Source: Thermoanaerobaculia bacterium
GTDB lineage: Bacteria; Acidobacteriota; Thermoanaerobaculia; Multivoradales; Multivoraceae
DNA: 64,000 bases
Assembly (NCBI GenBank): GCA_965116145.1
Contig: OZ220482.1
Coordinates: 1,729,450-1,793,449 of the forward strand
Direction of reading: 5' to 3'
A program made the position numbers and the translations under genes. Below are positions 2,701-31,505 of the stretch, piece by piece; the stretch's first letter is position 1, and each line of letters begins with the position of its first letter. The notes under the pieces are model-generated. The model saw only the letters and a list, made by a program, of their open reading frames with translations, did not search any database and was not told the origin of the DNA.

Positions 2701-3975
2701 ATGCTCGTTGCGTTCGCCTTGACCAACAGTAGCTGCTTCCGGGACCGCCAGGAGCTCAGCATGGAGGCCGTCGGCGGCACCGGCGGCGCCTTCGCGTTCG
2801 ACTCGGGCGTGCGCTACGCGCCCCGGCTGAACCGGGTCGCGGCGATCTACGGCCCGAACGGCAGCGGCAAGTCCCGGTTGGTGGACGGCCTCACCTTCGC
2901 CCAGCACTTCGTCCTGGACTCGTCCAAGGGAAGGCAGGCCGGCGAGAAAATCCCCTGCGACCCCTTCCTGTTCCGGGAGGACACTCGCAAGAGCCCCAGC
3001 ACGTTCGACGTAGCCTTCGTCGAAGGCGGCACCCTGTACGAGTACGGGTTCGCCGTGGACTCGGAGCGCGTCCACCAGGAGTGGCTTCTGGCCTGCCCGC
3101 CGGGCGGGCGGATGCGCCGACTGCTGGACCGCTCCTTCGACGCCGACACTCGCGAGGAGCACTGGAAGTTCGGGCCTTCTGTCCGCGGCTCGAAGCAGCT
3201 CTGGCGCGAGAACACGAGACCCGACGCCCTGCTCGTGTCCACTGCCGCCCAGTTGAACAGCGAGACATTCGGGCCTGTGGTCGACTGGTTCGGCCGACTG
3301 CGCGTCCTTGGAACTGAGGGACCGCCACCGATCTACACGGCCAAGGCAATCAACGAGAACGACCGGATGAAGCGGAGCGTCCTGATGCTCATGAAGGAGG
3401 CCGACATCACCGTCGCCGACGTTGCGGTCGATGAAGCCAGTGATTCCCTGGAGGAGCTGAAGGACGAACTGCCTCCCAAGGTGTTCGCAAGGACGATCAA
3501 GCACTCTCCCACGTTCGACTGGCCCCGCGTCGGCTTCGTCCACGAGCCCCGGGACAGCGACTCTCAGCGGATCGACCTCGAGCGCGAATCGGACGGCACA
3601 CAGCGCTACTTCAGTCTTGCGTTTCCCTGGCTGGAAGTCCTGGCGAACAACCGAGTGCTGGTGGTCGACGAACTGGACCGCAGCCTCCATCCGCTGCTCG
3701 TCGCGTCCCTGATCCAGCGCTTCAACCGTGAACCGGAAGACAGCAGCTCCAGCCATGCTCAACTGATCGCGACGATGCACGACGTCACGCTCCTCCAGGA
3801 GACTCTGGATCGCGGACAGGTGTGGTTCACCGAGAAGGACCGGCAGACCGAGGCGGCAAGCCTCATCGCCCTCTCCGACTACCGCCCGCGCAAGAACGAG
3901 GCGCTCATGCGCGGCTACCTGGGCGGCAGATACGGCGCGATCCCCGTCGTCGTTCCGCCCGACGCACTTGACTGA
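2701..3975 (+). CDS. AAA_21-type ATPase (ABC-like NTPase), first gene of the defence operon
   Basis: Walker A YGPNGSGKS and Walker B-like VLVVDELDRSLHP are present. The SD sequence GAGGAGG lies upstream. The tail SDYRPRKNEALMRGYLGGRYG is typical of this ATPase family. Confidence 0.8.
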   Translation: MLVAFALTNSSCFRDRQELSMEAVGGTGGAFAFDSGVRYAPRLNRVAAIYGPNGSGKSRLVDGLTFAQHFVLDSSKGRQAGEKIPCDPFLFREDTRKSPSTFDVAFVEGGTLYEYGFAVDSERVHQEWLLACPPGGRMRRLLDRSFDADTREEHWKFGPSVRGSKQLWRENTRPDALLVSTAAQLNSETFGPVVDWFGRLRVLGTEGPPPIYTAKAINENDRMKRSVLMLMKEADITVADVAVDEASDSLEELKDELPPKVFARTIKHSPTFDWPRVGFVHEPRDSDSQRIDLERESDGTQRYFSLAFPWLEVLANNRVLVVDELDRSLHPLLVASLIQRFNREPEDSSSSHAQLIATMHDVTLLQETLDRGQVWFTEKDRQTEAASLIALSDYRPRKNEALMRGYLGGRYGAIPVVVPPDALD

Positions 3976-4199
3976 CCGAAGCCGCAAGCAGGCCAGGCAG
4001 TCGAGAACTGCAAACGGCTCGACCCGACACAACGAGCTCCCGCCACAGACGTATGGAGGCTCATCGAGCGGCTGCGCGATCTCCGCGAGCGAGACAAGGC
4101 CGGGTAGTGACCGGCGCCTCGCGCGAGGCGCCGGAGCAAGCCACGGGCACCACATCGCCCTGACCGCCGGGGCCGTACCGGGGCTGGTACGTTACGCCG

Positions 4200-7100
4200 A
4201 TGCGGCTTGAGGATCTTCAGCCCCGTTGCACGGTGCGCGGCGTGCATCCCGACGGGGCGGTGGAGGTCGTCAATGTCGAGTGGTTCGGGTCGGAGGCGGT
4301 CGAACTGACGTTCAAGGCGCCGGACGGGGGCGTCATGAACCAGCTTCTCTACCGCGACGACGAGGCCGGGCTGAAGCTGGTCGAGCGGGGGCGGGCGTGG
4401 TCCTTCGACGGGGATGGCGCCCTGTTCCGGCTGGTGTCGGAAGCGCAGCGCATCCGGCTCGCGCATCTGTTCGATCCGGTGCTGGCGGTGCATACGTCCG
4501 TGGTCGAGCCGCTGCCCCACCAGATCACGGCGGTCTACGAGGCGATGCTGCCGCGCCAGCCGCTCCGCTTCCTGCTCGCCGACGACCCGGGCGCCGGCAA
4601 GACGATCATGGCGGGACTGCTGATCAAGGAGCTGATGGCCCGCGGCGATCTCGAGCGCTGCCTGGTGGTCTGTCCGGGCGCCCTGGCCGAGCAGTGGCAG
4701 GACGAGCTCTACCGGCGGTTCCACCTGCCGTTCGAGATCCTGACGAACGACCGGCTGGACGCCGCGCGCACCCGCAACTGGTTCCTGGAAGCGAACCTGG
4801 TCATCGCCCGGTTGGACAAGCTGTCGCGCGACGACGACGTGCAGCAGAAGCTGCAGGCGCCCGGCGCCGAGTGGGACCTCGTCGTCTGCGACGAAGCGCA
4901 CAAGTTCTCGGCGACGTACTTCGGGCACGAGATCAAGTTCACGAAGCGCTACAGGCTGGGCCGGCTTCTCTCCGGCCTGACCCGCAACTTCCTGCTGATG
5001 ACGGCAACCCCTCACAACGGCAAGGAGGCGGATTTCCAGCTCTTCATGGCGCTGCTCGACGACGACCGGTTCGAGGGCCGCTTCCGCGACGGCGTGCACA
5101 CCGTGGATGTGTCCGACCTGATGCGGCGCATGGTCAAGGAACGGCTGCTCAGGTTCGACGGCAGGCCGCTCTTTCCCGAGCGCATCGCCTACACCGTCCC
5201 GTTCGAACTGTCCGACGAAGAAGCCCGTCTCTACGGGGAGGTCACGAGCTACGTCCGCGAGCAGTTCAATCGCGCCGAGGCGCTTGCCAACAGGAAGCGG
5301 ACGAGCGCCGTCGGTTTCGCCCTGACCATCCTGCAGCGGCGGCTGGCGTCCTCGCCGGAGGCCATCTACCGCTCCTTGCGGCGCCGGCGGGAACGGCTGG
5401 AAGGACGCCTGCGCGAACTCGAGGTCCTCCAGAAGGGCGGCCAGCACTCCCTGGTCGTTCAGTTCCTGGCGCCGGAACTCGACGAGGACGATGTCCAGGA
5501 TCTCGCCGACGCCCCGGAGGAGGAGATCGAGGACACCGAGGCGAAGGTCCTCGACCAGGCCACGGCCGCGCAGTCGATCGCCGAGCTGAGGGCCGAGATC
5601 GAGTCCCTGAAGCGACTCGAGGCGCTGGCGCTTGAAGTGCGCCGCGGCGGCCAGGACACGAAGTGGCGCGAACTTGCCAGCCTGCTGAACGAGATCTTCA
5701 GCCCCTCCGGCCGGGCCGACCGGATCGGAGAACGCACGACGCCCACCGGGACCGGTCCGGCGCCGCGGCCGGTCACGTCACCGGGGCAGAAACTCGTGCT
5801 GTTCACCGAGCACCGCGACACGCTGAGCTACCTGCACGAGCGGATCGGCACGCTGCTCGGCCGCGAAGGCTCGGTGGTCGTCATCCACGGCGGCATCGGC
5901 CGCGAGCAGCGCCTGGGCATCCAGGAGGCCTTCCTGTACGACCCGGAGGTCCAGGTGCTGCTGGCGACCGACGCCGCCGGTGAGGGCATCAACCTGCAAC
6001 GGGCGCATCTGATGGTCAACTACGACCTGCCGTGGAACCCGAACCGGCTGGAGCAGCGCTTCGGCCGCATTCACCGGATCGGCCAGCGGGAGGTCTGCCA
6101 TCTCTGGAATCTGGTCGCCAGGGAGACCCGGGAGGGCGATGTCTACCACCGGCTCCTGGAGAAGCTGAACCAGGCCCGCGAGGCGCTCGGAGGACAGGTC
6201 TTCGACGTGCTCGGCAAGCTGGAGTTCGAAGGCCGTCCGCTGCGGGAGCTGCTGCTGCGGGCCATCCGCTACGGCGAGCAGCCCGAGGTACGGGCCCGGC
6301 TCGACACCGCCGTCGACCATGCCCTGGACCACGGTGCGCTGCAGGAGCTGCTCGAAGACCGGCAGCTCGCGCACGACGCGATGGACGCCTCGCGCGTCCG
6401 GCGGGTCCGCGAGGACATGGAACGTGCCGAAGCACGCCGCCTGCAGCCGCACTACATCCGGTCCTTCTTCTTGGCCGCGTTCAGGCGGCTCGGCGGCAGA
6501 CTGCGCGAGCGGGAGCCGGGCCGCTTCGAGGTGACGAAGGTGCCGGCAGCCGTCCGCCGACGCAGCCGGCTGATAGGGACCGGCGCGCCGGTGCTGGGCC
6601 GCTACGAGCGGATCGCGTTCGAGAAACCGCTGGTGGCGCCGCAGGGCCAGCCGCTCGCCGACTTCTTCTGCCCCGGCCATCCCCTGCTGGACACGGTCAC
6701 CGATCTGACCCTCGAAGATCATCGCGGCCTGCTGCGGCGCGGCGCCGTCCTGGTCGACGAACGCGACCACGGCACGGCGCCGCGGGTGCTGTTTTCGATC
6801 GAGCACGCCCTGCAGGACGGCAACACCACCCGCAGCGGCGACCGGAAGGTCGTCTCCCGGCGCATGCTGTACGTGGAACTCGGCGCCGACGGCGATCCGC
6901 GCCACCTGCACTACGCGCCGTATCTCGACTACCGGCCGCTGACCGGCGACGAGCCGAGCGTCGACGACATCCTCGAGCGGCCCGAGTGCCGTTGGATCGA
7001 CCGCGGCCTCGAGCAGAAGGCGCAGGGGTACGCGGTCGCCAACGTCGTGCCCGAACATCTCAAGGAGGTGCGCGACGCGCGGCTCGACCTGCTCGCACGC

Positions 7101-7784
7101 ACCGAGGCGGCGGTCAAGGAGCGCCTGACCAAGGAGATCAGTCACTGGGACCACCGTGCCGCTCAGCTCAGGCTCGACGAAGAAGCCGGGAAGGCCGGCG
7201 CCCGACTCAACTCGGCCGAAGCGCGGCGACGGGCGGAGACCCTGAACGAGCGCCTCAGGAAGCGTCTGACCGAGCTGGAGCGGGATCGGCAGATCTCGCC
7301 CCGACCGCCGATCGTGCTCGGCGGCCTCCTGGTCGTCCCCCGCGGCCTGATCGACACGATGACGGGCGGAACCGGCTCCACCAACGCCGCCGCCGCCGCG
7401 ACCGACACCCAGGCGGCAGCCGCCGAAGCCCGCAACATCGTCATGGCAGCGGAGCGCCGGCTCGGCTTCGAACCCGTCGACCGGGAGTTCGAGAAGCTGG
7501 GCTACGACGTCGAGAGCCGGGACCCGGCCACCGGCAGGCTCCGGTTCATCGAAGTCAAGGGACGACGCAGCGACGCCCCGACGGTCACCGTCACCAGGAA
7601 CGAGATCCTGTATTCCCTGAACAAGCCGGACGACTTCATCCTCGCCATCGTCCTCTTCGACGACAGCGACAGCCCGCCGGTCCGCTACGTGCGGCAGCCG
7701 TTCGGGAAGGAACCCGACTTCGCGGCCGAGAGCGTCAACTACGCCCTGCGGGAACTCCTCGCACGGGCCGAGGACCCGAATTGA
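4200..7784 (+). CDS. SNF2-family helicase with C-terminal DUF3883 (restriction-endonuclease-like) domain
   Basis: SNF2 motifs are present: DDPGAGKT (I), DEAHKF (II), TATPHNG (III) and QRFGRIHRIGQ (VI). The C-terminus GYDVES...RFIEVKG...TRNE matches the DUF3883/NOV-C PD-(D/E)xK fold. Confidence 0.9.
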   Translation: MRLEDLQPRCTVRGVHPDGAVEVVNVEWFGSEAVELTFKAPDGGVMNQLLYRDDEAGLKLVERGRAWSFDGDGALFRLVSEAQRIRLAHLFDPVLAVHTSVVEPLPHQITAVYEAMLPRQPLRFLLADDPGAGKTIMAGLLIKELMARGDLERCLVVCPGALAEQWQDELYRRFHLPFEILTNDRLDAARTRNWFLEANLVIARLDKLSRDDDVQQKLQAPGAEWDLVVCDEAHKFSATYFGHEIKFTKRYRLGRLLSGLTRNFLLMTATPHNGKEADFQLFMALLDDDRFEGRFRDGVHTVDVSDLMRRMVKERLLRFDGRPLFPERIAYTVPFELSDEEARLYGEVTSYVREQFNRAEALANRKRTSAVGFALTILQRRLASSPEAIYRSLRRRRERLEGRLRELEVLQKGGQHSLVVQFLAPELDEDDVQDLADAPEEEIEDTEAKVLDQATAAQSIAELRAEIESLKRLEALALEVRRGGQDTKWRELASLLNEIFSPSGRADRIGERTTPTGTGPAPRPVTSPGQKLVLFTEHRDTLSYLHERIGTLLGREGSVVVIHGGIGREQRLGIQEAFLYDPEVQVLLATDAAGEGINLQRAHLMVNYDLPWNPNRLEQRFGRIHRIGQREVCHLWNLVARETREGDVYHRLLEKLNQAREALGGQVFDVLGKLEFEGRPLRELLLRAIRYGEQPEVRARLDTAVDHALDHGALQELLEDRQLAHDAMDASRVRRVREDMERAEARRLQPHYIRSFFLAAFRRLGGRLREREPGRFEVTKVPAAVRRRSRLIGTGAPVLGRYERIAFEKPLVAPQGQPLADFFCPGHPLLDTVTDLTLEDHRGLLRRGAVLVDERDHGTAPRVLFSIEHALQDGNTTRSGDRKVVSRRMLYVELGADGDPRHLHYAPYLDYRPLTGDEPSVDDILERPECRWIDRGLEQKAQGYAVANVVPEHLKEVRDARLDLLARTEAAVKERLTKEISHWDHRAAQLRLDEEAGKAGARLNSAEARRRAETLNERLRKRLTELERDRQISPRPPIVLGGLLVVPRGLIDTMTGGTGSTNAAAAATDTQAAAAEARNIVMAAERRLGFEPVDREFEKLGYDVESRDPATGRLRFIEVKGRRSDAPTVTVTRNEILYSLNKPDDFILAIVLFDDSDSPPVRYVRQPFGKEPDFAAESVNYALRELLARAEDPN

Positions 7785-7976
7785 CCGGTCGCGCCGCCGA
7801 TCGCCCTGCCGATCGCCCCGCCGGTCATCGCCGGACGGCGCCCTCCCCCGAGGCTCTCCCTGCCCGCAGTTCCCGGCGATCGGCGGCGGCGGCCGCGGAT
7901 TCGCCCGCTGTAGGATGCCCGGCGATGCCCCGACCGACGCACGGCAACCCCGGCCACTAGCTGGACCCGCGCCCCG

Positions 7977-10900
7977 ATGGCCGCAACGAATCACGAGCGC
8001 GTCGGCAAGGCGCTCGAGCTCCTGAGGGCAGGCCTGGCCCCCTTCGTCGACCGCGAGATGAAGCGCGCGGTCAGGAACGGACGGCTCGACCGCAGCGTCC
8101 TGGACTCCTTCAACGATCCCAGGCTGCATCAGCGCCCCCTGGTCGAATGGGACGCCGCGGCGTTGCTCAAGCTGATGTGGGACCACTGGAACAGCGTCTT
8201 CCGGGATGTCCTCGGGCCGGCCGAGCGCAGCTTCGTCGGCGAGCTGCGCGGGCACCGGAACCGCTGGGCGCACCAGGAGGCCTTCTCCGGCGACGACGCG
8301 TACCGAGCGCTCGACACGGCGGGCCGCCTGCTGACCGCGGTTGGCGCGACGAAGGAAGCGGCCGAGGTCGACCAGTCGAAGACGGAGCTTCTGCGGGAAC
8401 GTTACGACCAGCAGACGCGCAACCAGCGGCGGCGCCAGGCGACCCTCTCCATCAAGAGCACGGCGAGCCTCAAGCCGTGGCGGCAGGTCGTGACACCGCA
8501 CCGGGACGTGGCAAGCGGCGGCTACCAGCAGGCCGAGTTCGCCGCCGACCTGTGGCAGGCCTCGCACGGCGAAGGCGCCGAGGAGTACCGCGACCCGGCG
8601 GAGTTCTTCCGCCGCACCCACCTGACCGAGAGCCTCAGGCGGATGCTCGCCGGCGCCGCGCAGCGACTCGCCGGCCAGGGCGGCGATCCGGTCGTCCAGT
8701 TGCAGACGAACTTCGGCGGCGGCAAGACCCACTCGATGCTCGCTCTCTACCACCTGTGCTCGGGTGCGGCGTTCACCGAGCTGCCCGGTGTCGAGGACCT
8801 CATGCGGGAGAGCGGGGCGCCGGACCTGCCGGCGGTCAGGCGGGTCGTGCTGGTCGGCAATCGCATCTCGCCGGGGAATCCGGTGACCAAGGCGGACGGC
8901 ACGGTGGTGCGGACGCTCTGGGGCGAACTCGCCTGGCAGCTCGGCGGCGCCGAGGCTTTCGCCCGCATCGCGGCGGACGACCTGAACGCCACCAACCCCG
9001 GCGATGTCCTGCGGCAGCTTCTCGTCGAGTTCGGTCCCTGCCTGATCCTGATCGACGAATGGGTCGCCTATGCCCGCCAGCTTCACGACCAGGGCGACAT
9101 CCCCGGCGGCAGCTTCGAGACCCAGTTCACGTTCGCGCAGGCGCTGACCGAATCCGCCAAGGTAGCCGGCAACTGCCTGCTGGTGGTCAGCCTGCCGGCC
9201 TCCGACACCGCCAGCTCCCAGGCCGACGACGTCGAGGTCGGCGGTCAGCGCGGCCGCCAGGCTCTCAACCGGCTGCGCAACGTGATCGGGCGCATCGAAT
9301 CGTCCTGGCGCCCGGCCAGCGCGGAGGAGGGCTTCGAGATCGTGCGCCGGCGGCTGTTCGAGCCGTTCGCCGACCCGGAGAAGTTCCGGGACCGCGACGT
9401 TGTCGCCCGGGCGTTCGCCGACCTCTACCGGGACCGGTCTCACGAGTTTCCGCCGGACTGCCGGGACGCCGACTACGAGCAGCGGCTGAAGGCGGCCTAT
9501 CCGATCCACCCGGAGATCTTCGACCGCCTCTACTCGGACTGGTCGACCCTGGTGACGTTCCAGCGCACCCGCGGCGTGCTGCGACTGATGGCCGCGGTGA
9601 TCCACAGCCTCTGGCAGAAGGGCGACAGCAGCCCGCTCATCCTGCCGGCGAGCCTGTCGATCGACGACCCTCAGGTGCAGTTCGAGCTGACCCGCTACCT
9701 GCCTGCGCCCTGGGTGCCAGTGATCGAGAAGGACGTCGACGGCCCGCAGTCCCTGCCGCAGCAGATCGAGAGCGAAGTCACGAACCTGGGCAAGTACTCC
9801 GCCTGCCGACGAGTGGCCCGCACCGTGTATCTCGGTTCTGCTCCGAGCGCCGGCTCGGCACAGCGCGGACTCGAGGATCGCCGGATCAAGCTGGGCTGCG
9901 TCCTTCCCGGCGAGCCCCCCAGGGTCTTCGAGGACGCGCTGCGGCGGCTGGCGTCCCGCGCGACCCACCTCTACCAGGACGGCAGCCGCTACTGGTACGA
10001 CACGCGGCCGACCGTGACGAAGCTGGCCCAGGATCGCGCCGAGCAGCTTCGCCGCGAGCCGGACCAGGTGTCCCAGGCGATCGACGCGAACCTGCGCGCC
10101 GCCCTGCGCGAACGGGCCGGATTCAGCCGCATCCACATCGCGCCGCAGTCCGGCCACGACGTACCGGACGAACGCGATGTCCGTCTCGTCGTCCTCGGCG
10201 CCCGGCACGAGCACCGGCAGGAACCGGACTCCCCTGCCCAGGCCGCAGCAGCGGCCATCCTCGACTCCCGAGGCGCCTCGCCCCGGCTCTACCGCAACAC
10301 CCTCGTCTTCCTGGCGCCGGACCAGACGCGGCTGCAGGACCTCGAAGAGGCCGTCCGCCACCGCCTCGCGTGGGAGTCCATCCTCGCCGAGCGGGAGTCG
10401 CTGGATCTCTCGCCGCACCAGGTCAAGCAGGCGGATACCCAGCTCCAGGCAGCCGCCGAGTCCGTCAACGTCCGCCTGCCCGAGACCTACCGCTGGCTGC
10501 TCGTACCCGTCCAGGACGACCCGGCGGCGGCCGTGACCTGGAACGCCGCCCGACTCTCGGGCCACGCCGATCTCGCCGTCCGTGCCGCCAACCGCCTGAA
10601 GAGCGACGACCGGCTGGCCGCGGCGCTCTCCGGCACCCGGCTGCGGATGGAGCTCGACCGGATTCCGCTGTGGCGCGGTAACCACGTGCCGCTGCCGCAG
10701 CTCGTTGAGGACTTCGCGCAGTACCTCTACCTGCAGCGGCTGCAGAACCCGTCCGTGCTGCTGCGCGCGGTGGCGGACGGGGTCGGGCTGCTGACCTGGG
10801 AACAGGACGCCTTCGCCTGGGCCGACAGCTTCGACGAGACCGGCGGCGGCGCGGTGGCCTCCGGCAGTTCCAGCGGAGCCGGCGGCGCTGCCGTCGACGG

Positions 10901-11462
10901 GGCTGACGGCAGGACCAGCGCCGACGGTCCGGCCGAGACGTCCGGTCGGTACCCCGGCCTCCGCGCCGGCCAGGTGATCTCCCTGACGGACCCGGCGGCC
11001 CCGGGGCTCCTGGTCAAGCCGGACGTTGCACGCCGCCAACTGGAGGCGGAAAGCGCCCCGCCGCCGAGCGCCGCCGGCCCCGCCGCTGCGGCCGGCGCCG
11101 CGACCGACCAGACCGGCTCCGGCAAGACAGCGGCCGGCGCCGCCGCGGGGGCCGCTGCCGGACAGACCCCTCCGCAGGCGCCGGGCCCCAACCGGTTCGA
11201 CGGCGCCGTCTCACTGGACGCCACGCGCGCCGGGTACGAAGCGAGCCGGATCGCCGACGAGGTCATCACCCACCTGGCCAGCCTCGTCGGCTCCAGGGTC
11301 ACCGTGACCCTGGAGATCGAGGCCGAGTTCCCGGACGGGCCGCCTGACCGACCGGACGGGGCAACGGATCGCCCGGGCGGTGCACCGGACCACGTCGTCC
11401 GCACCGTGACCGAAAACTGCCGGACCCTGAAGTTCAGAAGCCACGGCTTCACGCGCGAGTAG
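7977..11462 (+). CDS. DUF499 P-loop ATPase with N-terminal Swt1-like HEPN domain
   Basis: The N-terminus carries the HEPN Rx4H motif (RNRWAHQ). The DUF499 hallmark P-loop FGGGKTH is present. A long Ala/Pro/Gly low-complexity linker precedes a roughly 90-aa C-terminal domain. Confidence 0.85.
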   Translation: MAATNHERVGKALELLRAGLAPFVDREMKRAVRNGRLDRSVLDSFNDPRLHQRPLVEWDAAALLKLMWDHWNSVFRDVLGPAERSFVGELRGHRNRWAHQEAFSGDDAYRALDTAGRLLTAVGATKEAAEVDQSKTELLRERYDQQTRNQRRRQATLSIKSTASLKPWRQVVTPHRDVASGGYQQAEFAADLWQASHGEGAEEYRDPAEFFRRTHLTESLRRMLAGAAQRLAGQGGDPVVQLQTNFGGGKTHSMLALYHLCSGAAFTELPGVEDLMRESGAPDLPAVRRVVLVGNRISPGNPVTKADGTVVRTLWGELAWQLGGAEAFARIAADDLNATNPGDVLRQLLVEFGPCLILIDEWVAYARQLHDQGDIPGGSFETQFTFAQALTESAKVAGNCLLVVSLPASDTASSQADDVEVGGQRGRQALNRLRNVIGRIESSWRPASAEEGFEIVRRRLFEPFADPEKFRDRDVVARAFADLYRDRSHEFPPDCRDADYEQRLKAAYPIHPEIFDRLYSDWSTLVTFQRTRGVLRLMAAVIHSLWQKGDSSPLILPASLSIDDPQVQFELTRYLPAPWVPVIEKDVDGPQSLPQQIESEVTNLGKYSACRRVARTVYLGSAPSAGSAQRGLEDRRIKLGCVLPGEPPRVFEDALRRLASRATHLYQDGSRYWYDTRPTVTKLAQDRAEQLRREPDQVSQAIDANLRAALRERAGFSRIHIAPQSGHDVPDERDVRLVVLGARHEHRQEPDSPAQAAAAAILDSRGASPRLYRNTLVFLAPDQTRLQDLEEAVRHRLAWESILAERESLDLSPHQVKQADTQLQAAAESVNVRLPETYRWLLVPVQDDPAAAVTWNAARLSGHADLAVRAANRLKSDDRLAAALSGTRLRMELDRIPLWRGNHVPLPQLVEDFAQYLYLQRLQNPSVLLRAVADGVGLLTWEQDAFAWADSFDETGGGAVASGSSSGAGGAAVDGADGRTSADGPAETSGRYPGLRAGQVISLTDPAAPGLLVKPDVARRQLEAESAPPPSAAGPAAAAGAATDQTGSGKTAAGAAAGAAAGQTPPQAPGPNRFDGAVSLDATRAGYEASRIADEVITHLASLVGSRVTVTLEIEAEFPDGPPDRPDGATDRPGGAPDHVVRTVTENCRTLKFRSHGFTRE

Positions 11463-11671
11463 GCGGCAACCAGGCGCCGGGGGAGGGCCGGAGCGAGGTT
11501 CCGCAACGCGGACCCGAGGCCCGCTGCGGAGGGCCGACCGAAGCCGAGTCGTCCGGATTGCCAAACGAAGGATCATCCTGATAGCTTCTTGAGCACCGAG
11601 ACACTGCCCCGCGTTCCGTCCAGCAGCGCCTCCGTACCAGATCATCTTGGGTGCCCCAAGAGGGGAAACCC

Positions 11672-11905
11672 ATGACCGACACACTTCTTGTCGCCCGCAA
11701 CCTCGAAGGGGCAGGAATGCACACCGAGCAGGCCGAAGCCGTCGCCGAGGCCAGCCGTGACGCCGTGACCGAGAACAGCGCCACCAGGGCCGACCTTCTC
11801 GACCTGGAACTGCGCCTCACCCGGCGCCTCTACGCGCTCGCGATAGCCCAGGCCGCCGCCACCGCAACGCTCACCGTCACCCTGCTACGCCTGCTGGCAA
11901 CGTAG
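11672..11905 (+). CDS. small DUF1640-like coiled-coil/TM protein (paralog 2)
   Basis: MTDTLLVARNLEGAGMHTEQAEAVAEA...RADLLDLELRLTRRLY followed by a hydrophobic tail. The SD sequence AGAGGGG precedes the ATG at 11672. Confidence 0.55.
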   Translation: MTDTLLVARNLEGAGMHTEQAEAVAEASRDAVTENSATRADLLDLELRLTRRLYALAIAQAAATATLTVTLLRLLAT

Positions 11906-12081
11906 CCAAGACCGCAGTCGACGCCGCCTTGGCACCGCGGCTACGCCCGCGCCGCCTCCTGATCGGGGCGCCATGCGGTCCTGCGCCGACCCACGTTGTG
12001 GTCAACGTCTGTCAACTGCCGTGCTACGCTGACCACAGCCACAGCCGCCCACGACCGGCGGCGCAACCGGGAGTCACCGAC

Positions 12082-12342
12082 ATGGCCGACACCGACAGCC
12101 GCCCAGGGGCGATGTCCCTCTCCGACGAGAAGGCCACGCCCATGAGGGTCTACAGCTCTTTGCGAGAGGCGGAGGTAGCCGCCGCGCGCCAGTACCTGGC
12201 TGCGTCAGGCACTGCCAGGTCGAAGTTCGTGACGCGCGTCGAGCGGGCCCCATTTGGCAAGGGGTACGTAGTGCGCTCCGTCCCCGCCAGCTTCGTGCTC
12301 AACCCGCACCTGCGACGATTGCTCAGGCCGAGAATGTCATAG
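12082..12342 (+). CDS. hypothetical small protein
   Basis: ORF with a GGGAG SD-like sequence before the ATG at 12082. No recognisable domain. Confidence 0.3.
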   Translation: MADTDSRPGAMSLSDEKATPMRVYSSLREAEVAAARQYLAASGTARSKFVTRVERAPFGKGYVVRSVPASFVLNPHLRRLLRPRMS

Positions 12343-12445
12343 AGGTCGAAGACAAGAGCCAATAGCGGCCTGCCCTACGGAACTAGACCCTCGTCGCGCA
12401 CAAAGAAAGAGGGAAGAAGCCAACGACAAAAAGGAGAGCGTAAAC

Positions 12446-12643
12446 GTGAAATCTCGAGTGGAGAGAGGGAGTCAAAGAACCAAGTACGTCGTAATTGACT
12501 TGAATGCCACGAAAGAACTGCAGGACTGGATTCAGAGCGACAGCGTCAATCGTATCCTCAAGTTCGCGGAGACGGCAGAAAAAAACCTGGGCTTGAGGAC
12601 GGCCGGAAAGGACTCTTCGCATCGCACCAACAATGACGGCTGA
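12446..12643 (+). CDS. hypothetical 65-aa protein, first gene of the low-GC cassette
   Basis: GTG start with a strong SD (AAAAGGAGAG). Local GC is far below the genomic background. Its stop overlaps the next start. Confidence 0.45.
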   Translation: MKSRVERGSQRTKYVVIDLNATKELQDWIQSDSVNRILKFAETAEKNLGLRTAGKDSSHRTNNDG

Positions 12644-13334
12644 CCTGCTGGGCTCCCTGTCCCTGAGCGGCGTCGCGGGTTACGTTTTTCTTCGTTGGTC
12701 ATGCCTCAAACGGTTTGATATCCGACGTGCAACAGGAGAACATGTCGTCTTCTGTTCAGTAATCGCGGGAATTTCGTTTGTCGTGCTGGGGCACGGCGTT
12801 CCTGTGCCGGAGATGACGCAACTGGGTTTCCTGAAGCCATACTGGACCCCGCTGCTGGCAGTAGTGTCGGCGGCCGTACTGGCACCAACACTCAACGTGG
12901 TTTCCCGCATTGCGCATCACTTCGGGACTTCAAACCCATTGATTTTCCCTTCATGGGCTGCGTTTGAGCGTGATGCGATCATTCAAGAAGATCCTTTTGT
13001 TGAGGTTCTCAGTTCCCGAGAACCTCTCGAGCTCACCCTACGGGACGGTAAGACGTACATCGGCTTCGTCGTCGCGACCAGTACTCCCCGATCAGGTGTA
13101 TCCCGCGCCTCGAAGATCGTCTGTTATGTGGTGCCAGTACTGAGCGGCTACAGAGATGGACAGACTCAGCAATTGAAGCTCACAACGGGATACGCAGCAC
13201 TCTTGCAAGACGAGGAAAACTGGCACCGTCTGGAGATCGTCATTCCACGGTCGGAGATCACTCGTGCTCGCTTGTTTGACCTCGGCTTGCACGTTGAAGG
13301 CGGGTTCGTGTCGCTGTCCGGTCCCAGCGAGTGA
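12633..13334 (+). CDS. membrane protein (3 predicted TM helices) with soluble C-terminal domain, low-GC cassette
   Basis: Hydrophobic helices in the first 90 aa. The start overlaps the upstream stop and the stop overlaps the macro gene start, so the three genes read as an operon. Confidence 0.6.
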   Translation: MTADLLGSLSLSGVAGYVFLRWSCLKRFDIRRATGEHVVFCSVIAGISFVVLGHGVPVPEMTQLGFLKPYWTPLLAVVSAAVLAPTLNVVSRIAHHFGTSNPLIFPSWAAFERDAIIQEDPFVEVLSSREPLELTLRDGKTYIGFVVATSTPRSGVSRASKIVCYVVPVLSGYRDGQTQQLKLTTGYAALLQDEENWHRLEIVIPRSEITRARLFDLGLHVEGGFVSLSGPSE

Positions 13335-13828
13335 AGTCGCGACGAGAGGCGCTGATCTCCTTCAGGACCGGCGACCTCCTTGATGAGGACGCAGAGGCGT
13401 TGATCAACCCCGTCAACTGCGTCGGGGTCATGGGACGCGGGATTGCACTTCAGTTCAAGAAGAAGTACCCCGGTAACTTTCGGGCCTACGTCGCGGCCTG
13501 CAAGCGGAAGGAGATCGTTCCCGGACGCATGTTCGTCTTCGAGACCGGTGCGCTCCTGTACCCCCGTTTCATCGTGAACTTCCCGACCAAGCGTCACTGG
13601 CGTGGCAAGAGTCGACTCCGGGACATCGAGGACGGGTTGGAGGACCTTGCCAGGCTGATCCGCGAGCGCAGGATCCGCTCCATCGCTGTGCCGGCGCTCG
13701 GCAGCGGACTCGGCGGACTGGACTGGAGCGACGTGCGGCCGCGCATCGAGGAGACCCTGCGCGGCTTCGACGATCTGGACGCGGTCATCTTCGAACCGGG
13801 CAGCGCGCTGGAGGCAAGGAGCGCCTGA
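13331..13828 (+). CDS. TARG1/DarG-like macro domain protein (ADP-ribose hydrolase family)
   Basis: NCVGVMGRGIALQFKKKYPG and PALGSGLGGLDWSDVRPRIEE align with TARG1 motifs (CRMGAGIAVLFKKKFGG; PRIGCGLDRLQWENV). Confidence 0.8.
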   Translation: MKSRREALISFRTGDLLDEDAEALINPVNCVGVMGRGIALQFKKKYPGNFRAYVAACKRKEIVPGRMFVFETGALLYPRFIVNFPTKRHWRGKSRLRDIEDGLEDLARLIRERRIRSIAVPALGSGLGGLDWSDVRPRIEETLRGFDDLDAVIFEPGSALEARSA

Positions 13829-13978
13829 GGTTGCCGGCTCTCTGGCGGCCACCTGCGGCTGAACGCATAGCCCAATCAAGCGCGCAGCCAAGCCTCCCGG
13901 CTCGGTGATCGCCGTGGCCATCTCATGGAGTACGACACGCGACCGACTTGCGCCGTCCGTTGCTCTCCGCGAGGCTCC

Positions 13979-14218
13979 TCAGGCGAACAGGCGCAGGCCG
14001 AGCAGCAGTGCCGCCATCGTGGTGCCGTGAATCAACAAGGACCGGTACAAGGTCGCCTTCATCTCGGCGACCGCCACGTCCAGGTCGGCCTTCGTTGCTC
14101 CGCCCTCGACAACCGCCACACGGCGGGTTTCGACCACGGCGTCCGCTTGCGGTGCGTCCATGCCGGCGGCTTCCAGGGCGCGCGCTGCGGCGAGCGTGTC
14201 GAACGTGGCTGTGTTCAT
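13979..14218 (-). CDS. small DUF1640-like coiled-coil/TM protein (paralog 3)
   Basis: MNTATFDTLAAARALEAAGMDAPQADAVVE...KADLDVAVAEMKATLYRSLL followed by a hydrophobic tail. The ATG at 14218 was chosen by paralog alignment. Confidence 0.55.
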   Translation of the reverse strand: MNTATFDTLAAARALEAAGMDAPQADAVVETRRVAVVEGGATKADLDVAVAEMKATLYRSLLIHGTTMAALLLGLRLFA

Positions 14219-14285
14219 GCTGGAGCAGCGCATCAACTGCGTTGTTGTCGATGCGCGCTCAGGCCCATTGCGGCGGGGAACGAGA

Positions 14286-17200
14286 TCAACTGTCCTCGCC
14301 CTCATCGTCGTCGTCATCATCATCGTCGTCGAAGAGTCCGGGGGTCTCCGGCCGGTCGGGGGTGCGGGCGAGGCGGGTGATCTCCGGCCAGCTCTGGACC
14401 AGGCTGTTGTAGGACAGGGCTTCGGCGGCGCGCTTCTTTCGTTCGCATACCGTGTAGAGCCGATAGCAGAGTTCGCGGGCTGTCTCCGCCCGGCTTCCGA
14501 GGCGCTTCACCAGGTCGGCGGCGCCCTGTTCGCCGCCCGATTCGAGCACCCGAATCAGGTGATGGACTGCCTCCCAGGCAGTGAGGCGCGTGTCCGTCTT
14601 CGGGTCCCAGTCCTCGGGTAGTTCCTTCGGCGCCAGCAGGCGGACCCGGCCGCCTCGGGACTCGACGACCCCTGCCTCGACCATGCCCTCTACGCTGGTG
14701 TTCTTGGCCTTGGACAGGGTCTCCGCGATGCCGAAGTCGCCCTCGTCGAAGCCGTTCTGCTCGAACCAGGCCAGCGCCCAGCGGCTGTCCGCGTCGAAGT
14801 CGCCTTCCTGTTCAGCCAGCACCTCGTCGAGGATCTCGTTGATGAGCGCCAGAGCCTCACGGACAGACATCGCGTTGCCGGCGGCGTCAAGCACCCTCTC
14901 GTGGCGCGTGTATGCCGCCATGCCCGGTCCGATCGCGGCCTGGGCGAGGTCCACCGGCGCGACGTTGCCGGACTGCAGCAGCCGCAGCGCCTTCGGCAGC
15001 TCGGCGCGCAGCGCGGTCAGGAACTCGCGGCGGGTGGCCACCGGAGCGTCGGCAGGCCGGCGGCGGCAGACGAGGACGATGCTGGAGGCCAGGGCGTTCG
15101 TCCTCATGCCGACCATCCGGTTGCTGAGCTCGGTGCGCATCGGCCAGGTGCCGGTGATCGCGAAACCGGACCGGATCGCGGCGTCCAGGAAGGTCTCCCA
15201 ACCGGTGCTCGCCACCCCCGTGTCGCCCTTGCGTTCGGACTGCTTGAAGGCGTAGTAGATCGTGACCGGAAAGCCGGGATGCGCCTGTTCGGCAAGCCGC
15301 TGCAGCGCGTCCGTCATGCCCGAGAGAAAGAAGGTCTCTGCGGCGGCCTTGTTGCCGTGCCGGTAGGGCGTCGCCACCAGTTCCTCGGCCTTCGGCACGG
15401 CCATCGTTGCGAACAGATCCGGAAACACCGGTCTCAGCGAGCGGCGTAACCAGACGTAGAAGAAGTCCGACAGGTCCGCGTAGCCGATGTTGTCGTAGTA
15501 CGGCGGATCGGTGGAGATGACCTTGTCGATGCTCAGGTTCTGAGTGCCCGCATCCGCAAGAGCCGCACTGCCGGCAGTGCTTGTCTGTGATTGGGCCAGA
15601 ATCTTGACGATCCAGCCGCACATGGAAATCCAATTGCCGCTGGACGTGCTCAGGGGATTCGCTTCGGCGTGGTCCCATGTCATCGGGATCGCTTGCCGCG
15701 CAAACGTGTTTCGTATCTTCGTGAACCCGATATCCCAAGTGCAGATCGAGGAGGAACGATCGGCCAAACGGTCCACCGCGAGGCCCAGATACAGGCCGAC
15801 CGCCTCGGCATACGCCGTCGCCCCCACACCGCCGTCGCGGAGCGGCCGTCCGTCGTCGGCGAGACCTGCCGCCGCGGCGTCCTGGCGGACCCGCTCCATC
15901 GCCTCGGCGACGAGATCGGAGAAGGTCGTCAGCGCAACGAGCTGGCGGGAGGTGAACAGGTCACACCAGCGGAGCATCCCGTACTCCTGCACGCGAAAGC
16001 CGAGTGCCCGCTGCGGCAGGTCGGTCTCGGGTGCCCACTCGGGGCTTGCGTTGATCGCCGTGAGCTCCTGGCTGGCCGACGCGTCAAGGTAGAGGCGTTG
16101 CCTGTCTCCTTCCGCGACAACTGCGAGGAGACGAGAACCCAGTCGGCCTGCCTTGCCCTCCGCTCGCAGGTAGTCAAACGGCATCGGTGACCCGGACATC
16201 AGGCACAGAAAGGGGCTGCCGCTGCCGCCGGACTTCGTCCCCCGCTTCGTCGCCTCGGGATCCGGCGGCGGTCCGACCCTTACCTCGAACCGGTACCCCC
16301 GCCCCTCGATCACCGGCTCGACGTACGCCTCCTTGCCCTTCTTCGTCGACAGCATGAACGTCGACGCCAGGGGCACCTCCACCTCCGCAAACGCCGGATT
16401 CGGACTCCGCACCGTCCGCGCCCACAGCCACGCGATCACCGTCAGCTTCCGGCCAGCGTACGGCGCCAGGTCCGGACGAGCCCGCGCCATCGCAGGAGCC
16501 ACCTCCACCTGCGGGTACAGATGGCCGATCCGACGCTTCACCTCGTCCCGCATCCAGCGGCCGTAGCGCCGCACATCTTCCGCCAGCCCCTGCGCACCGC
16601 GCCAGTCCCCGGCCAGCAACCGGGACTCACCCCGGGCCGCCGGATGCACCGGCGCCTTCCCGGCAAACTTCGGCGGCACCTCGATCATCGCCTTGTTGAT
16701 CAGCACCGCCACCGGGTTCAGGTCACTGGCATGGGACAGAAGCCCCAGACGCTGCGCTTCCAGCGGCAACGCCCCGCCCCCCGCAAACGGATCATGAAAC
16801 CCCGGCAACACCCCCGGATCGAACAGCTCCGCCTGCCCGCGGATGACCCGTGTTCGCCGCACAGGTCCGCTCCCAGCTCGCCCTGATCTCGGCCCGAGCC
16901 CGATCGAGCAACGCCTCGTTGGACGTGTTCTCCCACAGCACCAACTCCTCCAGCAACCTGAACAGACGCTCTCGCTCCTGCGCCGCCGCGATCTCCGCCA
17001 GCTCCCGCCTGTCGCGGGAGGCGTCCACCTCCGTCTCGCCGCCCGCACCCGGCTTCTCGCCCGCCGCCCGGCGCAGCCCGAGCGCACGCTCGGCCGCTCG
17101 TCGTCTGGCCGGATCCGACAGCAGCACATCGACGTACTCCTGGGGATCGTCGAGCATCTGGGCGAAGATCACCGCCCGCGCCACGGCGAGCGGCTTGCGC

Positions 17201-17322
17201 GACCACCACAGGTGAAGGGTCGAGGGGTGGCCATGGCGAATGGACTTCTCCCGAGCGCCGGCGACGTTGATCGCATCGAGTGGCAACGCCACCTCGATGA
17301 GCTTCCTGCGATGGGGGTTCAC
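14286..17322 (-). pseudogene. DUF1156-type DNA methyltransferase, copy 1 (full length but frameshifted near codon 165)
   Basis: N-terminus [19 protein letters not shown]...[17 protein letters not shown] is the DUF1156 hallmark. A 1-bp insertion relative to copy 2 (caggcggagc vs caggggagc, at about 16832) splits the reading frame into ORFs 16792..17322 and 14286..17129. The C-terminus is intact and ends in a poly-Asp tail. Confidence 0.8.
14911..16827. repeat. inverted repeat, left arm (identical 1.92-kb core of the methylase paralogs)
   Basis: The encoded protein segment ELFDPG...AAYTRH is 100% identical to the copy-2 segment. The DNA is identical by direct comparison of sampled regions. Duplicated antisense ORFs (e.g. 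15591..16190 and 32520..33119) confirm the repeat. Confidence 0.85.
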
Positions 17323-17437: not shown

Positions 17438-17632
17438 TCACGACCGCAGGTCAAACCGTCCATCCGCTGTCGTTCCGCCGGCGTCCCAGTCGAAAAAGCG
17501 CTCGCGATAGTCCTTCAGGCTGACCAGGGCGGCCGCCGGAGTCTGCCGCCGACAGATCAGAACCGGCCCACCGCCTCGTTCAAGCTGGTCCAGGACGCTG
17601 CCAAGCGACCGGCGGAGATCAACGGTGTTCAT
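17438..17632 (-). other. Phd/YefM-like antitoxin-type module (64 aa), in frame with integrase 1
   Basis: MNTVDLRRSLGSVLDQLERGGGPVLICRRQTPAAALVSLKDYRERF resembles Phd/YefM antitoxins. It has its own ATG at 17632. No partner toxin lies downstream. Confidence 0.45.
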
Positions 17633-18655
17633 TATCTTCCTGGATTCGGTCACCCTTTCAGCCGGGCTGCCAGGTGTCAACCCTGACGAGGCCCCTGACG
17701 AGGTCGCCGACAGCGTCGTTGGCATGGACCCTGACGTGTCGTCAGAAGGCGCGTCCGAGGCGCCGTGGCCCTCCGTTGCCGGCGCCGCCAGAAGGGCGGC
17801 CATGGCGCCTCCGATCCGCTCGGCCGCCGCTTCGGTGTCCTTGTCGCTGACGTGAGCGTAGCGGAGCGTCATTCGTGCCTGCGAATGGCCGAGCAGCCGC
17901 GAGACCACGGGCAGGGGCACGGACCGCATCACCGCGTGGCTGGCGAACGTGTGCCGGAGATCGTGCAGGCGTGCGTCGGCGATTCCAGCCTCGCGGCGCA
18001 CCTTCCGCCACAGCGACAGCTCATCGGAGCGGCTCGTGGAAGGATCGGTCAGCGAGGGAAACACGTACGGACTTCTGGTTCGGGGCTGACGGGCAAGGAC
18101 GGCGCGTGCCGGCGCGTTCAGGACGACGGTGCGCGGCCCGGTCTTGGTGTCGTTCAGGCGCAGCGAATCCCCGTCGACCTCCGACCAGCGGAGGCGCACG
18201 ATTTCGCCCTTCCGACAGCCTGTCCACAGCAGCAGCCGGATGATCTCCGCCTGCTGCCTGCCCGAGCCGCGGCCGCGGTGAGCGTCCAGAGCGGCGTGCA
18301 GACGTTCGACTTCCGCCCTGGACAGAAAGCGGGTCGGCTTCGGGCGCCGGTTGCGGTGAATGCCGCGGGTGGGATTGGTGGTGATGTGACCGCATGCCAT
18401 CGCGTGGTGGAAGATCTGGCGCAGCACGTCCAGTGTGCGGTTCGCGCCGGCCGGGGCGGACCGGCTGTAGCGGTCGAACCAGGCATTCACCGCCTTGCGG
18501 TCGATTCGGTCGAGCCGCCGCGGCCCGAACGTTGGCAACAACTGGGTGCGCAAGGCGCTGTCCATCCGCTTGCGGGTCGACGGCTTGCAGCGGGCATAGC
18601 TCACTGTCCTCCAGACGCCGGAAACGAACTTCCTGAACGTGGGGGGCCGAGTCAT
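17438..18655 (-). CDS. tyrosine recombinase/integrase 1, read in-frame into a C-terminal Phd/YefM-like module
   Basis: Catalytic region HDLRHTFASH...LGHSQARMTLRYAHV. Start at MTRPPTF (ATG at 18655) overlaps the integrase 2 stop (ATGA). There is no stop before the MNTVDL... module at 17632. Confidence 0.75.
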   Translation of the reverse strand: MTRPPTFRKFVSGVWRTVSYARCKPSTRKRMDSALRTQLLPTFGPRRLDRIDRKAVNAWFDRYSRSAPAGANRTLDVLRQIFHHAMACGHITTNPTRGIHRNRRPKPTRFLSRAEVERLHAALDAHRGRGSGRQQAEIIRLLLWTGCRKGEIVRLRWSEVDGDSLRLNDTKTGPRTVVLNAPARAVLARQPRTRSPYVFPSLTDPSTSRSDELSLWRKVRREAGIADARLHDLRHTFASHAVMRSVPLPVVSRLLGHSQARMTLRYAHVSDKDTEAAAERIGGAMAALLAAPATEGHGASDAPSDDTSGSMPTTLSATSSGASSGLTPGSPAERVTESRKIMNTVDLRRSLGSVLDQLERGGGPVLICRRQTPAAALVSLKDYRERFFDWDAGGTTADGRFDLRS

Positions 18656-31415: not shown

Positions 31416-31505
31416 CGTGACGGTCGATTCGTGCGGCGGACGCTTGCAGGCCAAGACGGCCGGAGCACCCGGCGAGCGGTCTGTCCAGGACACGCTCCAG
31501 ACCTG

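Follow-up and report, generated by a model that had tools for sequence, protein, structure and literature searches.

A probable invertible methylase switch in an Hma defence locus of a Thermoanaerobaculia bacterium

Introduction

The subject of this paper is a stretch of 64,000 nucleotides from a Thermoanaerobaculia bacterium (assembly GCA_965116145.1, contig OZ220482.1), called here the window, and the Hma (helicase, methylase, ATPase) defence system that it contains, also classified as a Type-1 DUF499-centred BREX-related (BR) system. The methylase gene of this system is present in two copies, hmaB and hmaB', inverted with respect to one another around a tandem pair of tyrosine recombinase genes, int1 and int2. 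We consider it quite probable that this arrangement is a shufflon-like invertible switch of the methylase and that the window has caught it in the OFF position. The trio of core genes was already known; a switch of this kind in Hma is unreported in the literature that we searched.

Hma was named by Payne et al. (2021), who described 1,638 operons from 26 phyla (PMC8565338). The HmaA of Halomonas meridiana cuts T4 propagation about 100-fold, for which both its helicase and its nickase domains are required; over-expression of HmaB left T4 infectivity unchanged, and hmaB is missing from about 15% of hmaA loci (Liu et al. 2024, PMC11232893). The same paper puts the co-occurrence of integrases with Hma at 19% and interprets it as mobility. 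In the reclassification by Rakesh & Krishnan (2026) the family became Type-1 DUF499-centred BREX-related; these authors proposed a restriction–modification (R-M)-like mechanism, counted the HEPN fusion in 1370 taxa and placed the target-recognition domain (TRD) insert between methyltransferase motif I and the DPPY motif (PMC12839542). MANTIS, of the sister Type-2 family, has been reconstituted and its biochemical mechanism is known: the methyltransferase, once loaded by the ATPase together with a small co-factor, hemimethylates asymmetric 6-bp sites; restriction requires all four proteins, and methylation and restriction both require the methyltransferase (bioRxiv 10.64898/2026.09.23.753747).

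Two further lines of published work bear on the locus. About 63% of Hma loci have other defence genes embedded in them, most often cassettes with an ABC-type ATPase, which are treated as independent defence systems; the survey in question left out any locus in which an hma gene was repeated, on the opposite strand or pseudogenised (bioRxiv 10.1101/2024.01.29.577857). Programmed inversions are on record for pglX of BREX type 1, for drmMI of DISARM-like systems and for Type IIG enzymes (Milman et al. 2023, PMC9881135). The searchable Hma and BR papers and full-text literature searches yielded nothing on inversion, on recombinases or on a duplicated hmaB, and neither 'Hma' nor 'DUF1156' occurs in the searchable papers on inversions.

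The Hma trio and its two methylase copies

Genes were called by profile searches with Pfam, PADLOC and NCBIfam, long spurious open reading frames (ORFs) being common in the window because its G+C content is about 70%. An earlier note on this DNA had read four ORFs from the letters as an AAA_21 ATPase, a SNF2/DUF3883 helicase, a HEPN–DUF499 ATPase and a DUF1156 methylase. All four are where it placed them, and searches with Pfam and PADLOC uphold each call with matches far beyond chance (table 1). Its R-M-like reading of the trio was right as well: the three core proteins match Hma over their full length, HmaB in two frames, at 1628.6, 1302 (main ORF of hmaB) and 1090.9 bits for the PADLOC profiles HmaA, HmaB and HmaC. 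What has lapsed is the claim that the trio is uncharacterised. The note had itself taken prior naming and characterisation as ground for calling the system known rather than novel, and the trio has been named since 2021 and is partly characterised: activity against T4 has been shown for an HmaA, and the mechanism of the sister system MANTIS is known.

HmaA matches its PADLOC profile from position 2 to 1172 of 1176 and carries the Pfam domains SNF2-rel_dom, ResIII, Helicase_C and NOV_C (amino acids (aa) 1077–1163), with the motifs GAGKT at aa 131 (Walker A), DEAH at aa 231 and FIEVKG in the tail. It is about 70% identical to its relatives over its full length and is the presumed restriction effector. 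HmaC is the HEPN-fused variant (HEPN_Swt1, E = 3.5e-32; DUF499, E = 6.2e-22; Pfam), and the Rx4H motif of its HEPN domain reads RNRWAH (aa 94–99). Neither HmaB' nor HmaC had a match in sequence searches of the PDB. Two NCBIfam models matched weakly, 'anti-phage-associated DUF1156' on 31431–34130 (99.5 bits against a cut-off of 1000) and 'anti-phage-associated DUF499' on 7977–11462 (167.7 bits against a cut-off of 1200), and therefore describe another BREX-related branch, not Hma.

What, then, is the condition of the methylase? The earlier note had called hmaB interrupted, and so it is. The N-terminal fragment (16792–17322) matches DUF1156 (E = 1.7e-25) and positions 8–130 of the PADLOC HmaB profile; the main ORF (14286–17129, 947 aa) accounts for positions 131–955 of 967 and carries the DPPY motif at aa 541. 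The reading frame is broken (+1) because of a single extra C at 16831, and removal of this C yields an uninterrupted ORF of 1011 aa.

That the methylase is also duplicated, as the note had it, is correct, although the second copy lies at 31431–34130, 14 kb beyond the region described there; the large repeat surfaced only on searching the whole window with HmaB. The product of hmaB' scores 1256 bits against the PADLOC HmaB profile, over positions 7–781 of 967 only, and matches DUF1156 with E = 1.2e-28 (Pfam). Motif I (DPFAGGG) is found near aa 181 and DPPY at aa 591. Homology ends at 33810 and is followed by an unrelated tail of 106 aa, the conserved C-terminal 190 or so residues being absent. 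Forty-five full-length HmaB relatives (856–1165 aa) reach residues 921–933 of the 947-aa main ORF of the window, with the exception of L068, in which the match is split at residue ~844 (L-numbers denote fetched relative loci, P-numbers int1 homologue proteins); the C-terminal region is therefore a conserved part of HmaB. Downstream of hmaB' lie metabolism-type genes (thiolase-like, SBP_bac_5 solute-binding).

The two copies share an inverted repeat of 2090 bp, the arms of which are 99.33% identical (blastn; 13 mismatches, 1 gap). Over 1931 bp (14900–16830) the identity is 100%. Every mismatch falls within the inner 160 bp, and the sole gap is the extra C of hmaB (GGCAGG[C]GGAG); hmaB' stays in frame through the equivalent position. 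The two copies are each defective, by different lesions, and an intact gene is a 1-nt correction or one inversion away: the 5' part of hmaB' followed by the 3' part of hmaB gives a 997-aa ORF without a stop.

Inversion in a related strain

Does a segment of this kind invert? In a related strain it does. P0003, 71% identical to int1, is encoded as an identical protein on four contigs of the long-read metagenome assembly ERZ19489113. When L161 (from a 1.84-Mb contig) is set against L162 and L164, identity is 100.000% over 6913 nt of left flank and 99.1–99.6% in the right flank. Between the flanks is a 6.3-kb segment that is 99.98% identical and has the reverse orientation with respect to them. 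The segment comprises the 5' 1.5 kb of one hmaB, a PIN gene, a small ORF, int2, int1-Phd, a PIN gene and the 5' 1.5 kb of the other hmaB. Both orientations are present in one population of the related strain.

The four junctions show a clean reciprocal exchange within a 26-bp core, GCGGTAGCCCTGTATTTGGCGTTTGC (codons AVALYLAFA, at about aa 500 of HmaB). The sequences flanking the core differ between the hmaB copies of L161 and L162, which are 76% identical overall. Since the exchange is reciprocal and confined to a 26-bp core flanked by differing sequence, it bears the signature of site-specific, not homologous, recombination. A mis-join by the long-read assembler at a 26-bp repeat is unlikely. 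The sole difference within the inverted segment is GG versus GGG (L161, 11820–11823; L162, 7987–7989). It lies in the DUF1156-coding part of one cassette, which is frameshifted at the silent locus and in frame at the expressed locus.

The counterpart of the 26-bp core in the window is candidate site 1 (table 1). In L082, L165, L166, L167 and L168 the identity between hmaB copies ends at the site 1 core, GCCGAGGCGGTnnnnSTGTATYTGG. A second candidate, site 2, marks the outer end of the repeat. There, following the codons M-A-V-Y-T-R-Y (GGCATGGCGGTATACACnCGnTACG), the match of the truncated copy to the full one ends in the window, L082, L161, L165, L166, L167 and L168; in L161 and L168, where the copies have otherwise diverged, a stretch of raised identity ends at this site. 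Use of site 1 in the related strain was observed directly; for site 2 these shared end points suggest use.

A recombinase pair associated with hmaB

The recombinases int1, which is identical to P0001, and int2 match Phage_integrase (Pfam) with E = 6e-24 and E = 3.2e-19, respectively, and are 42% identical to one another. Aligned to an E. coli XerD sequence, both retain the catalytic R, K, HxxR, H and Y. The C-terminal domain of int1 scores 28.4 bits against PhdYeFM, just below the cut-off of 29.8, and 24.2 bits against TIGR01552 phd_fam (cut-off 20.8); a Phd/YefM-like domain also appears in the precomputed Pfam matches of about 40 int1 homologue clusters. The pair is located between the two inverted hmaB copies, and the tandem order int2–int1 is kept in all related loci examined.

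How general is this association? A protein search with int1 returned 3402 homologues (E ≤ 1e-30). The close homologues whose contigs were fetched, P0003, P0009, P0011, P0031, P0034, P0065 and P0120 (67–77% identity), have hmaB adjacent in 7 cases out of 7, and in 6 of the 7 a second, inverted hmaB, usually truncated or split, stands across the recombinase pair. Indeed, wherever the contig of a close int1 relative showed neighbouring genes, int2–int1 adjoined hmaB. Two inverted hmaB copies surround int2–int1 in L020, L081, L082, L161–L162–L164, L165, L166, L168 and L172; L020, for example, reads hmaA, hmaC, truncated hmaB (-), int1, int2, second hmaB (+). A metagenome scan with int1 gave three close matches at 67–72% identity (L081, L082, L083). 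One copy is visible in L002 (int2, int1 and an hmaB reaching the contig end) and in L083 (int2–int1–hmaB before the contig end).

The association does not extend to tandem recombinases at large. Eighteen control loci longer than 9 kb, with tandem recombinases at 59% identity or less, showed no hmaB and no flanking inverted paralogues by blastn and tblastx. The notion that the whole tandem-recombinase family flanks inverted paralogues was accordingly rejected, and the association with hmaB is therefore specific to one recombinase clade, and it recurs across distant taxa.

Two loci depart from the simple pattern. In L167 (1258–7691) two convergent hmaB copies, of which one is broken into pieces of 398 and 532 aa, stand on one side of int2–int1 and hmaC on the other; this layout misfits a simple two-arm model. 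L173 is a decayed variant with insertion sequence (IS) insertions.

In relatives (L161–L165) a PIN (VapC-like) toxin gene follows int1, and a second pair of small ORF and PIN gene stands at the other end of the segment. Other int1 homologues bear a MazE/AbrB (PF04014) or HigB (PF05015) domain instead of Phd. In the window the Phd domain of int1 is present and the PIN gene absent.

The locus compared with other Hma loci

We compared the window with 80 loci that contain full-length HEPN-HmaC relatives (58–74% identity) from many phyla. Among these HmaC-anchored loci the gene order of the window is rare. In 67 of the 80 hmaB precedes hmaC on the same strand, and in 46 it is directly adjacent; hmaA abuts hmaC in 3 and hmaB is on the opposite strand in 2. 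The order in the window, hmaA–hmaC–inserts–hmaB(-), departs from the usual one-strand order hmaA–(inserts)–hmaB–hmaC while remaining clustered, and is shared with L001, L020 and probably L017 (3/80).

L001, from a metagenome-assembled genome (MAG) of Ca. Multivorans thiocomprendens, is the closest relative by hmaA and hmaC (84% and 73–74% identity). It has hmaA, hmaC and an inverted hmaB, and its contig ends (at 9365) some 70–100 nt upstream of the position of site 1. This end resembles the assembly break to be expected at an invertible site.

What would the switch change?

The copy pairs of L020 and L082 are mosaic. They are near-identical at about aa 121–180, 481–510 and from 640 onward, and variable at aa 61–120 and about 330–480, in L082 also at 511–630; the variable blocks flank site 1 on both sides. 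Across the 45 members of the HmaB family the least conserved stretch is aa 390–570, between motif I and motif IV (DPPY). By motif positions, family variability and the literature, site 1 is presumed to lie within the TRD region. Since the variable region falls between motif I and DPPY, inversion at site 1 in the relatives would swap much of the presumed target-recognition region. The promoter-proximal part would switch along with it, and the C-terminal domain would stay fixed.

The window cassettes are homogenised between aa 165 and aa 800. They differ in the N-terminal 165 or so residues (19–81% nucleotide identity over aa 1–120) and in the frameshift.

The state of the window

As assembled, the complete 3' end of hmaB is joined to the frameshifted cassette, and the intact cassette stands at the truncated, silent locus. 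For this reason the assembled sequence appears to encode no full-length HmaB; this would be the OFF state of the switch, and Hma is probably silent here. Such a state should be harmless if Hma, like MANTIS, cannot restrict without its methyltransferase. Cassettes with a frameshift or a split are common among the invertible relatives, at the complete-3'-end locus in L165, at the silent locus in L161 (GGG -> GG) and also in L167 and L168. Frequent null cassettes fit an ON/OFF component; they also fit relaxed selection on a silent cassette.

Is the lesion at 16831 genuine? If the extra C were a sequencing or assembly error, hmaB would be intact at 1011 aa and the window would hold an ordinary active Hma with a silent cassette, the system being simply ON. 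Removal of one base restores the full-length ORF, and mis-assignment of reads during polishing is plausible for a single-base difference in otherwise identical 1.9-kb repeats. However, the inserted C lies outside any homopolymer, and frameshifted cassettes recur in the invertible loci just listed. We regard an error as doubtful and take the frameshift to be real.

Alternatively, the window might hold a decaying defence island, in which the hmaB copies, the frameshift and the recombinases are remnants of rearrangements or of merged Hma loci; nothing would switch, and Hma would be dead or consist of HmaA and HmaC only. Neither hmaB copy is intact, and some 15% of hmaA loci are without hmaB (PMC11232893). 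The block of ATPase, 156-aa partner and hmaB' (table 1) resembles the middle of a canonical hmaA–X–hmaB–hmaC locus such as L022, and L173 with its IS insertions is a clearly decayed example. Partners are missing, too: AbiLi is without AbiLii, the DarG-like gene without DarT and the Phd domain of int1 without the PIN partner of its relatives. On the other hand, hmaA, hmaC, int1 and int2 are full length with their catalytic residues. The copies differ by one base over 1.93 kb, so that either the lesion is very recent or homogenisation is ongoing. The truncation point is no random break: it is the conserved site 2, common to seven loci. Moreover, the same layout is active in the related strain (L161/L162). 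Decay seems to us unlikely.

Several observations nevertheless count against a working switch in the window, among them the plausible polishing error and the missing partners just described. The window copies are 100% identical across site 1, so that a breakpoint there is invisible, and both sites of the window depart by several bases from those of the related strain, site 1 not matching its 26-bp core within 6 mismatches. The putative invertible segment measures about 17 kb and includes two large unrelated genes; in the relatives it measures about 4–6 kb (L161–L164, L020, L081, L082). The switch of the window cannot alter specificity: it would affect the N-terminal 165 or so residues and ON/OFF only. 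That inversion still occurs in this genome we infer from its relatives, not from its own reads, and the C-terminally truncated HmaB' is presumed to be inactive. With these points given their weight, the invertible switch caught OFF is the reading that we prefer.

Table 1. Features of the Hma locus and its surroundings in the window (coordinates in nucleotides of the window).
Feature	Coordinates	Strand	Description
hmaA	4200-7784	+	SNF2 helicase with C-terminal NOV_C (former DUF3883) PD-(D/E)xK-type nuclease
hmaC	7977-11462	+	Swt1-like HEPN (aa 11-123) fused to DUF499 ORC/Cdc6-type AAA+ ATPase
hmaB	14286-17322	-	DUF1156 N6-adenine-type methyltransferase, split over two frames, complete 3' end; 'expression locus'
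hmaB'	31431-34130	+	second methylase copy, 5' and central part intact, without C-terminal domain; 'silent locus'
Left arm of 2090-bp inverted repeat	14900-16989		inside hmaB
Right arm of inverted repeat	31722-33810		inside hmaB'
Candidate site 1 in hmaB	15785-15809	-	GCCGAGGCGGTCGGCCTGTATCTGG, codons AEAVGLYL; counterpart of the 26-bp core
Site 1 in right arm	32901-32925		in hmaB'
Candidate site 2 in hmaB	14900-14924	-	GGCATGGCGGCATACACGCGCCACG, codons GMAAYTRH; outer end of repeat
Site 2 in right arm	33786-33810		in hmaB'
int1	17438-18655	-	tyrosine recombinase, 405 aa, C-terminal Phd/YefM-like domain; 116 nt upstream of hmaB
int2	18652-19635	-	tyrosine recombinase; stop overlaps int1 start (ATGA)
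AbiLi-like AAA_21 (ABC-type) ATPase	2701-3975	+	Pfam AAA_21 E = 3.9e-30, PADLOC AbiLi 269 bits
Two-gene cassette	12446-13334	+	65-aa ORF (12446-12643) overlapping 233-aa ORF (12633-13334), N-terminal half hydrophobic by eye
DarG-like macrodomain gene	13331-13828	+	GTG start overlaps stop of 233-aa ORF (GTGA)
Giant secreted-type paralogues	20001-23999, 24230-28885	+	M12B metalloprotease, PKD, Calx-beta, Ig-like (Pfam)
ABC-type ATPase and 156-aa partner	29395-30948, 30945-31415	+	overlapping pair directly upstream of hmaB'

Passenger genes

The earlier note had treated the AAA_21 ATPase as an extension of the trio, in effect a four-component R-M-like machine in which this protein works with the helicase, the DUF499 ATPase and the methylase. 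Its gene does share a strand with hmaA, which it precedes by 225 nt, and ABC-type ATPases are the commonest family within Hma loci (bioRxiv 10.1101/2024.01.29.577857). Yet just one of the 80 HmaC-anchored loci, L059, has a homologue (40% identity, between hmaA and hmaB), and there an AbiLii gene follows (PADLOC 97.8 bits), the two forming a self-contained AbiL. Furthermore, the literature counts such ATPase cassettes as independent embedded systems, and the trio itself is named and partly characterised. We think a four-component machine very improbable. By its profile matches the AAA_21 gene reads as an orphan AbiLi-like ATPase, a passenger and not a fourth Hma subunit. No trace of an AbiLii partner was found in the window by tblastn; an 80-aa ORF at 3968–4210 was considered as an AbiLii remnant and rejected for want of any match.

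The accessory small genes that the earlier note saw between the components are there: the interval from hmaC to hmaB (11462–14286) holds several small ORFs and the DarG-like macrodomain gene. Part of it (12001–14000) is a patch of lower G+C (0.605). The macrodomain gene matches Macro with E = 1.1e-24 (Pfam), PADLOC DarG at 247.8 bits and NCBIfam antitoxin_DarG at 256.4 bits (cut-off 250). It covers positions 1–154 of 338 of the DarG profile, the C-terminal half being missing, and profile searches of the ORFs of the locus found no DarT gene. The adjoining pair of 65-aa and 233-aa ORFs has no match in Pfam, PADLOC or NCBIfam. The 233-aa family is very rare, with 5 homologue clusters among 5.8 billion proteins (30–38% identity). 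An ORF of about 70 aa precedes the homologue in 2 of the 3 contexts shown (L169, L171); a called macrodomain gene is beside it in none of the 3, the contig of L171 ending soon after the gene. The homologues are found near transposase, integrase or ParA genes. The 233-aa ORF was rejected as a DarT toxin: it has no DUF4433 match and its homologues have no called macrodomain neighbour. Of AbiL and DarTG the window has the AbiLi-like and DarG-like halves, and AbiLii and DarT were not found.

Between the recombinases and hmaB' the putative invertible segment carries cargo that was not seen in the segments of the relatives, namely two giant paralogues that are 84.5% identical over 2.4 kb and have internal 285-nt repeats. 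Beyond them, the ATPase at 29395–30948 matches PADLOC PD-T4-4_A (E = 4.4e-35) and Pfam AAA_15 and AAA_21. The same pair of ATPase and 156-aa partner is found in L022 (5078–7047), in the same order between hmaA and hmaB, at 44% and 36% identity, and is a candidate two-gene defence cassette. The 156-aa partner holds a 'VELK' stretch and is possibly a small PD-(D/E)xK nuclease. The defence-type passengers (the AbiLi-like ATPase, the 65-aa/233-aa pair, the DarG-like gene and the ABC-type ATPase with its 156-aa partner) are not needed to explain the trio, and they fit the published pattern of embedding.

Three small ORFs of 77–79 aa, 2154–2387 (+), 11672–11905 (+) and 13979–14218 (-), are apparent paralogues. 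The last is 60% identical to the second over 40 aa, and the first is similar by eye; one of the three has a weak CCDC90-like (Pfam) match. They stand at the borders of the AbiLi–hmaA–hmaC block, the embedded block and hmaB, and are not conserved in other Hma loci. Further downstream, 38696–38830 and 40985–41119 form a 136-nt direct repeat (96% identity), its copies lying at, or ahead of, the starts of two large ORFs. As marks of an island end, no tRNA gene was found in the window, and short direct or inverted repeats gave chance-level matches only. A scan for promoter and terminator consensus over 11.3–20.1 kb was uninformative.

Discussion

How does the locus of the window differ from the systems already described? 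With published Hma it shares all three core proteins and the lodging of other defence genes in and around the locus; it differs in that hmaB is an inverted pair around two recombinases, with neither copy intact as assembled. The closest parallels to the arrangement are the inversions of pglX in BREX and drmMI in DISARM. There, too, a methyltransferase gene is accompanied by an inverted partial copy and an adjacent recombinase, one terminus of the protein is fixed, intermediate or null forms without the C-terminus exist, and both orientations have been caught in long-read data (here in the related strain, L161 versus L162/L164). The family is a different one, DUF1156/HmaB, and it is the 5' cassettes that move and the 3' end that is fixed. 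Furthermore, for the BREX of L. rhamnosus a single recombinase gene is mentioned, whereas the window has two tandem tyrosine recombinases, one of which carries a Phd antitoxin domain.

Type I R-M systems include phase-variable hsdS shufflons with a tyrosine recombinase, such as the pneumococcal ivr/SpnD39III. The logic is the same: silent inverted partial genes, short intragenic recombination cores and a neighbouring tyrosine recombinase bring about heterogeneous methylation in a population. In hsdS shufflons, however, the specificity subunit alone is shuffled and all products are functional; in the proposed Hma switch it is the gene of the catalytic methyltransferase that recombines, and null cassettes, with frameshifts, are frequent.

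For the biochemistry of Hma the best experimental model is MANTIS (Gao_RL, a Type-2 BR system), which has a homologous DUF499 ATPase, an N6-methyltransferase and a helicase-nuclease. It differs in that a fourth component, the small protein MtsB, is present and its helicase bears a PLD/HKD-type nuclease. In the window HmaA has a C-terminal NOV_C nuclease and HmaC an N-terminal HEPN domain. No PLD domain was found in hmaA with Pfam or PADLOC. No MtsB candidate was recognised; the small ORFs scanned in the locus had no match in PADLOC, Pfam or NCBIfam.

By analogy with BREX and MANTIS, the following scheme may be drawn. HmaB would mark host DNA at a short motif, with HmaC as loader and scaffold. 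Unmarked DNA would be recognised by HmaB and HmaC and passed to HmaA, which would translocate along it at the expense of ATP and nick or cleave it, and the HEPN RNase might be a back-up suicide effector. The two recombinases, presumably co-translated, would recombine site 1 (about aa 500), with site 2 possibly serving as a second core, and the segment between the hmaB copies would invert, setting the other 5' cassette before the only complete 3' end. In the window a single inversion of about 17 kb, 15785–15809 with 32901–32925, would yield an intact 997-aa hmaB at the complete locus. The ABC-type ATPase and its 156-aa partner would travel with the intact cassette, giving the order ATPase–partner–hmaB as in the canonical L022.

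Is the window one instance of something broader? On balance, and with some reserve, we favour the view that there is a sizeable sub-family of Hma (Type-1 BR) systems with a dedicated, domesticated XerC/D-like pair that inverts hmaB at two conserved intragenic sites, so as to produce alternative specificities or null alleles, by which a population would hedge its bets on the whole defence system. In this sub-family int1 would often be fused to Phd and followed by a PIN toxin gene, the window would be an OFF instance, and at least part of the 19% integrase co-occurrence would reflect switching, not mobility.

Such a switch would offer a concrete and testable reason why integrase genes are so often found beside Hma. 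Surveys that require single-copy, same-strand and intact hma genes will miss loci of this kind. The programmed inversion of defence methyltransferases would be extended from BREX and DISARM to their DUF499-centred relatives, and in an unusual design: two recombinases, two sites, a catalytic subunit that is recombined and null cassettes that are common. Moreover, the natural pairs of alleles diverge in the region presumed to recognise the target, and could serve for mapping the way in which HmaB reads DNA and for asking if Hma, like MANTIS, depends on the methylase for restriction. As for the genome from which the window comes, its Hma is probably silent in the assembled state, with one inversion standing between it and activity.

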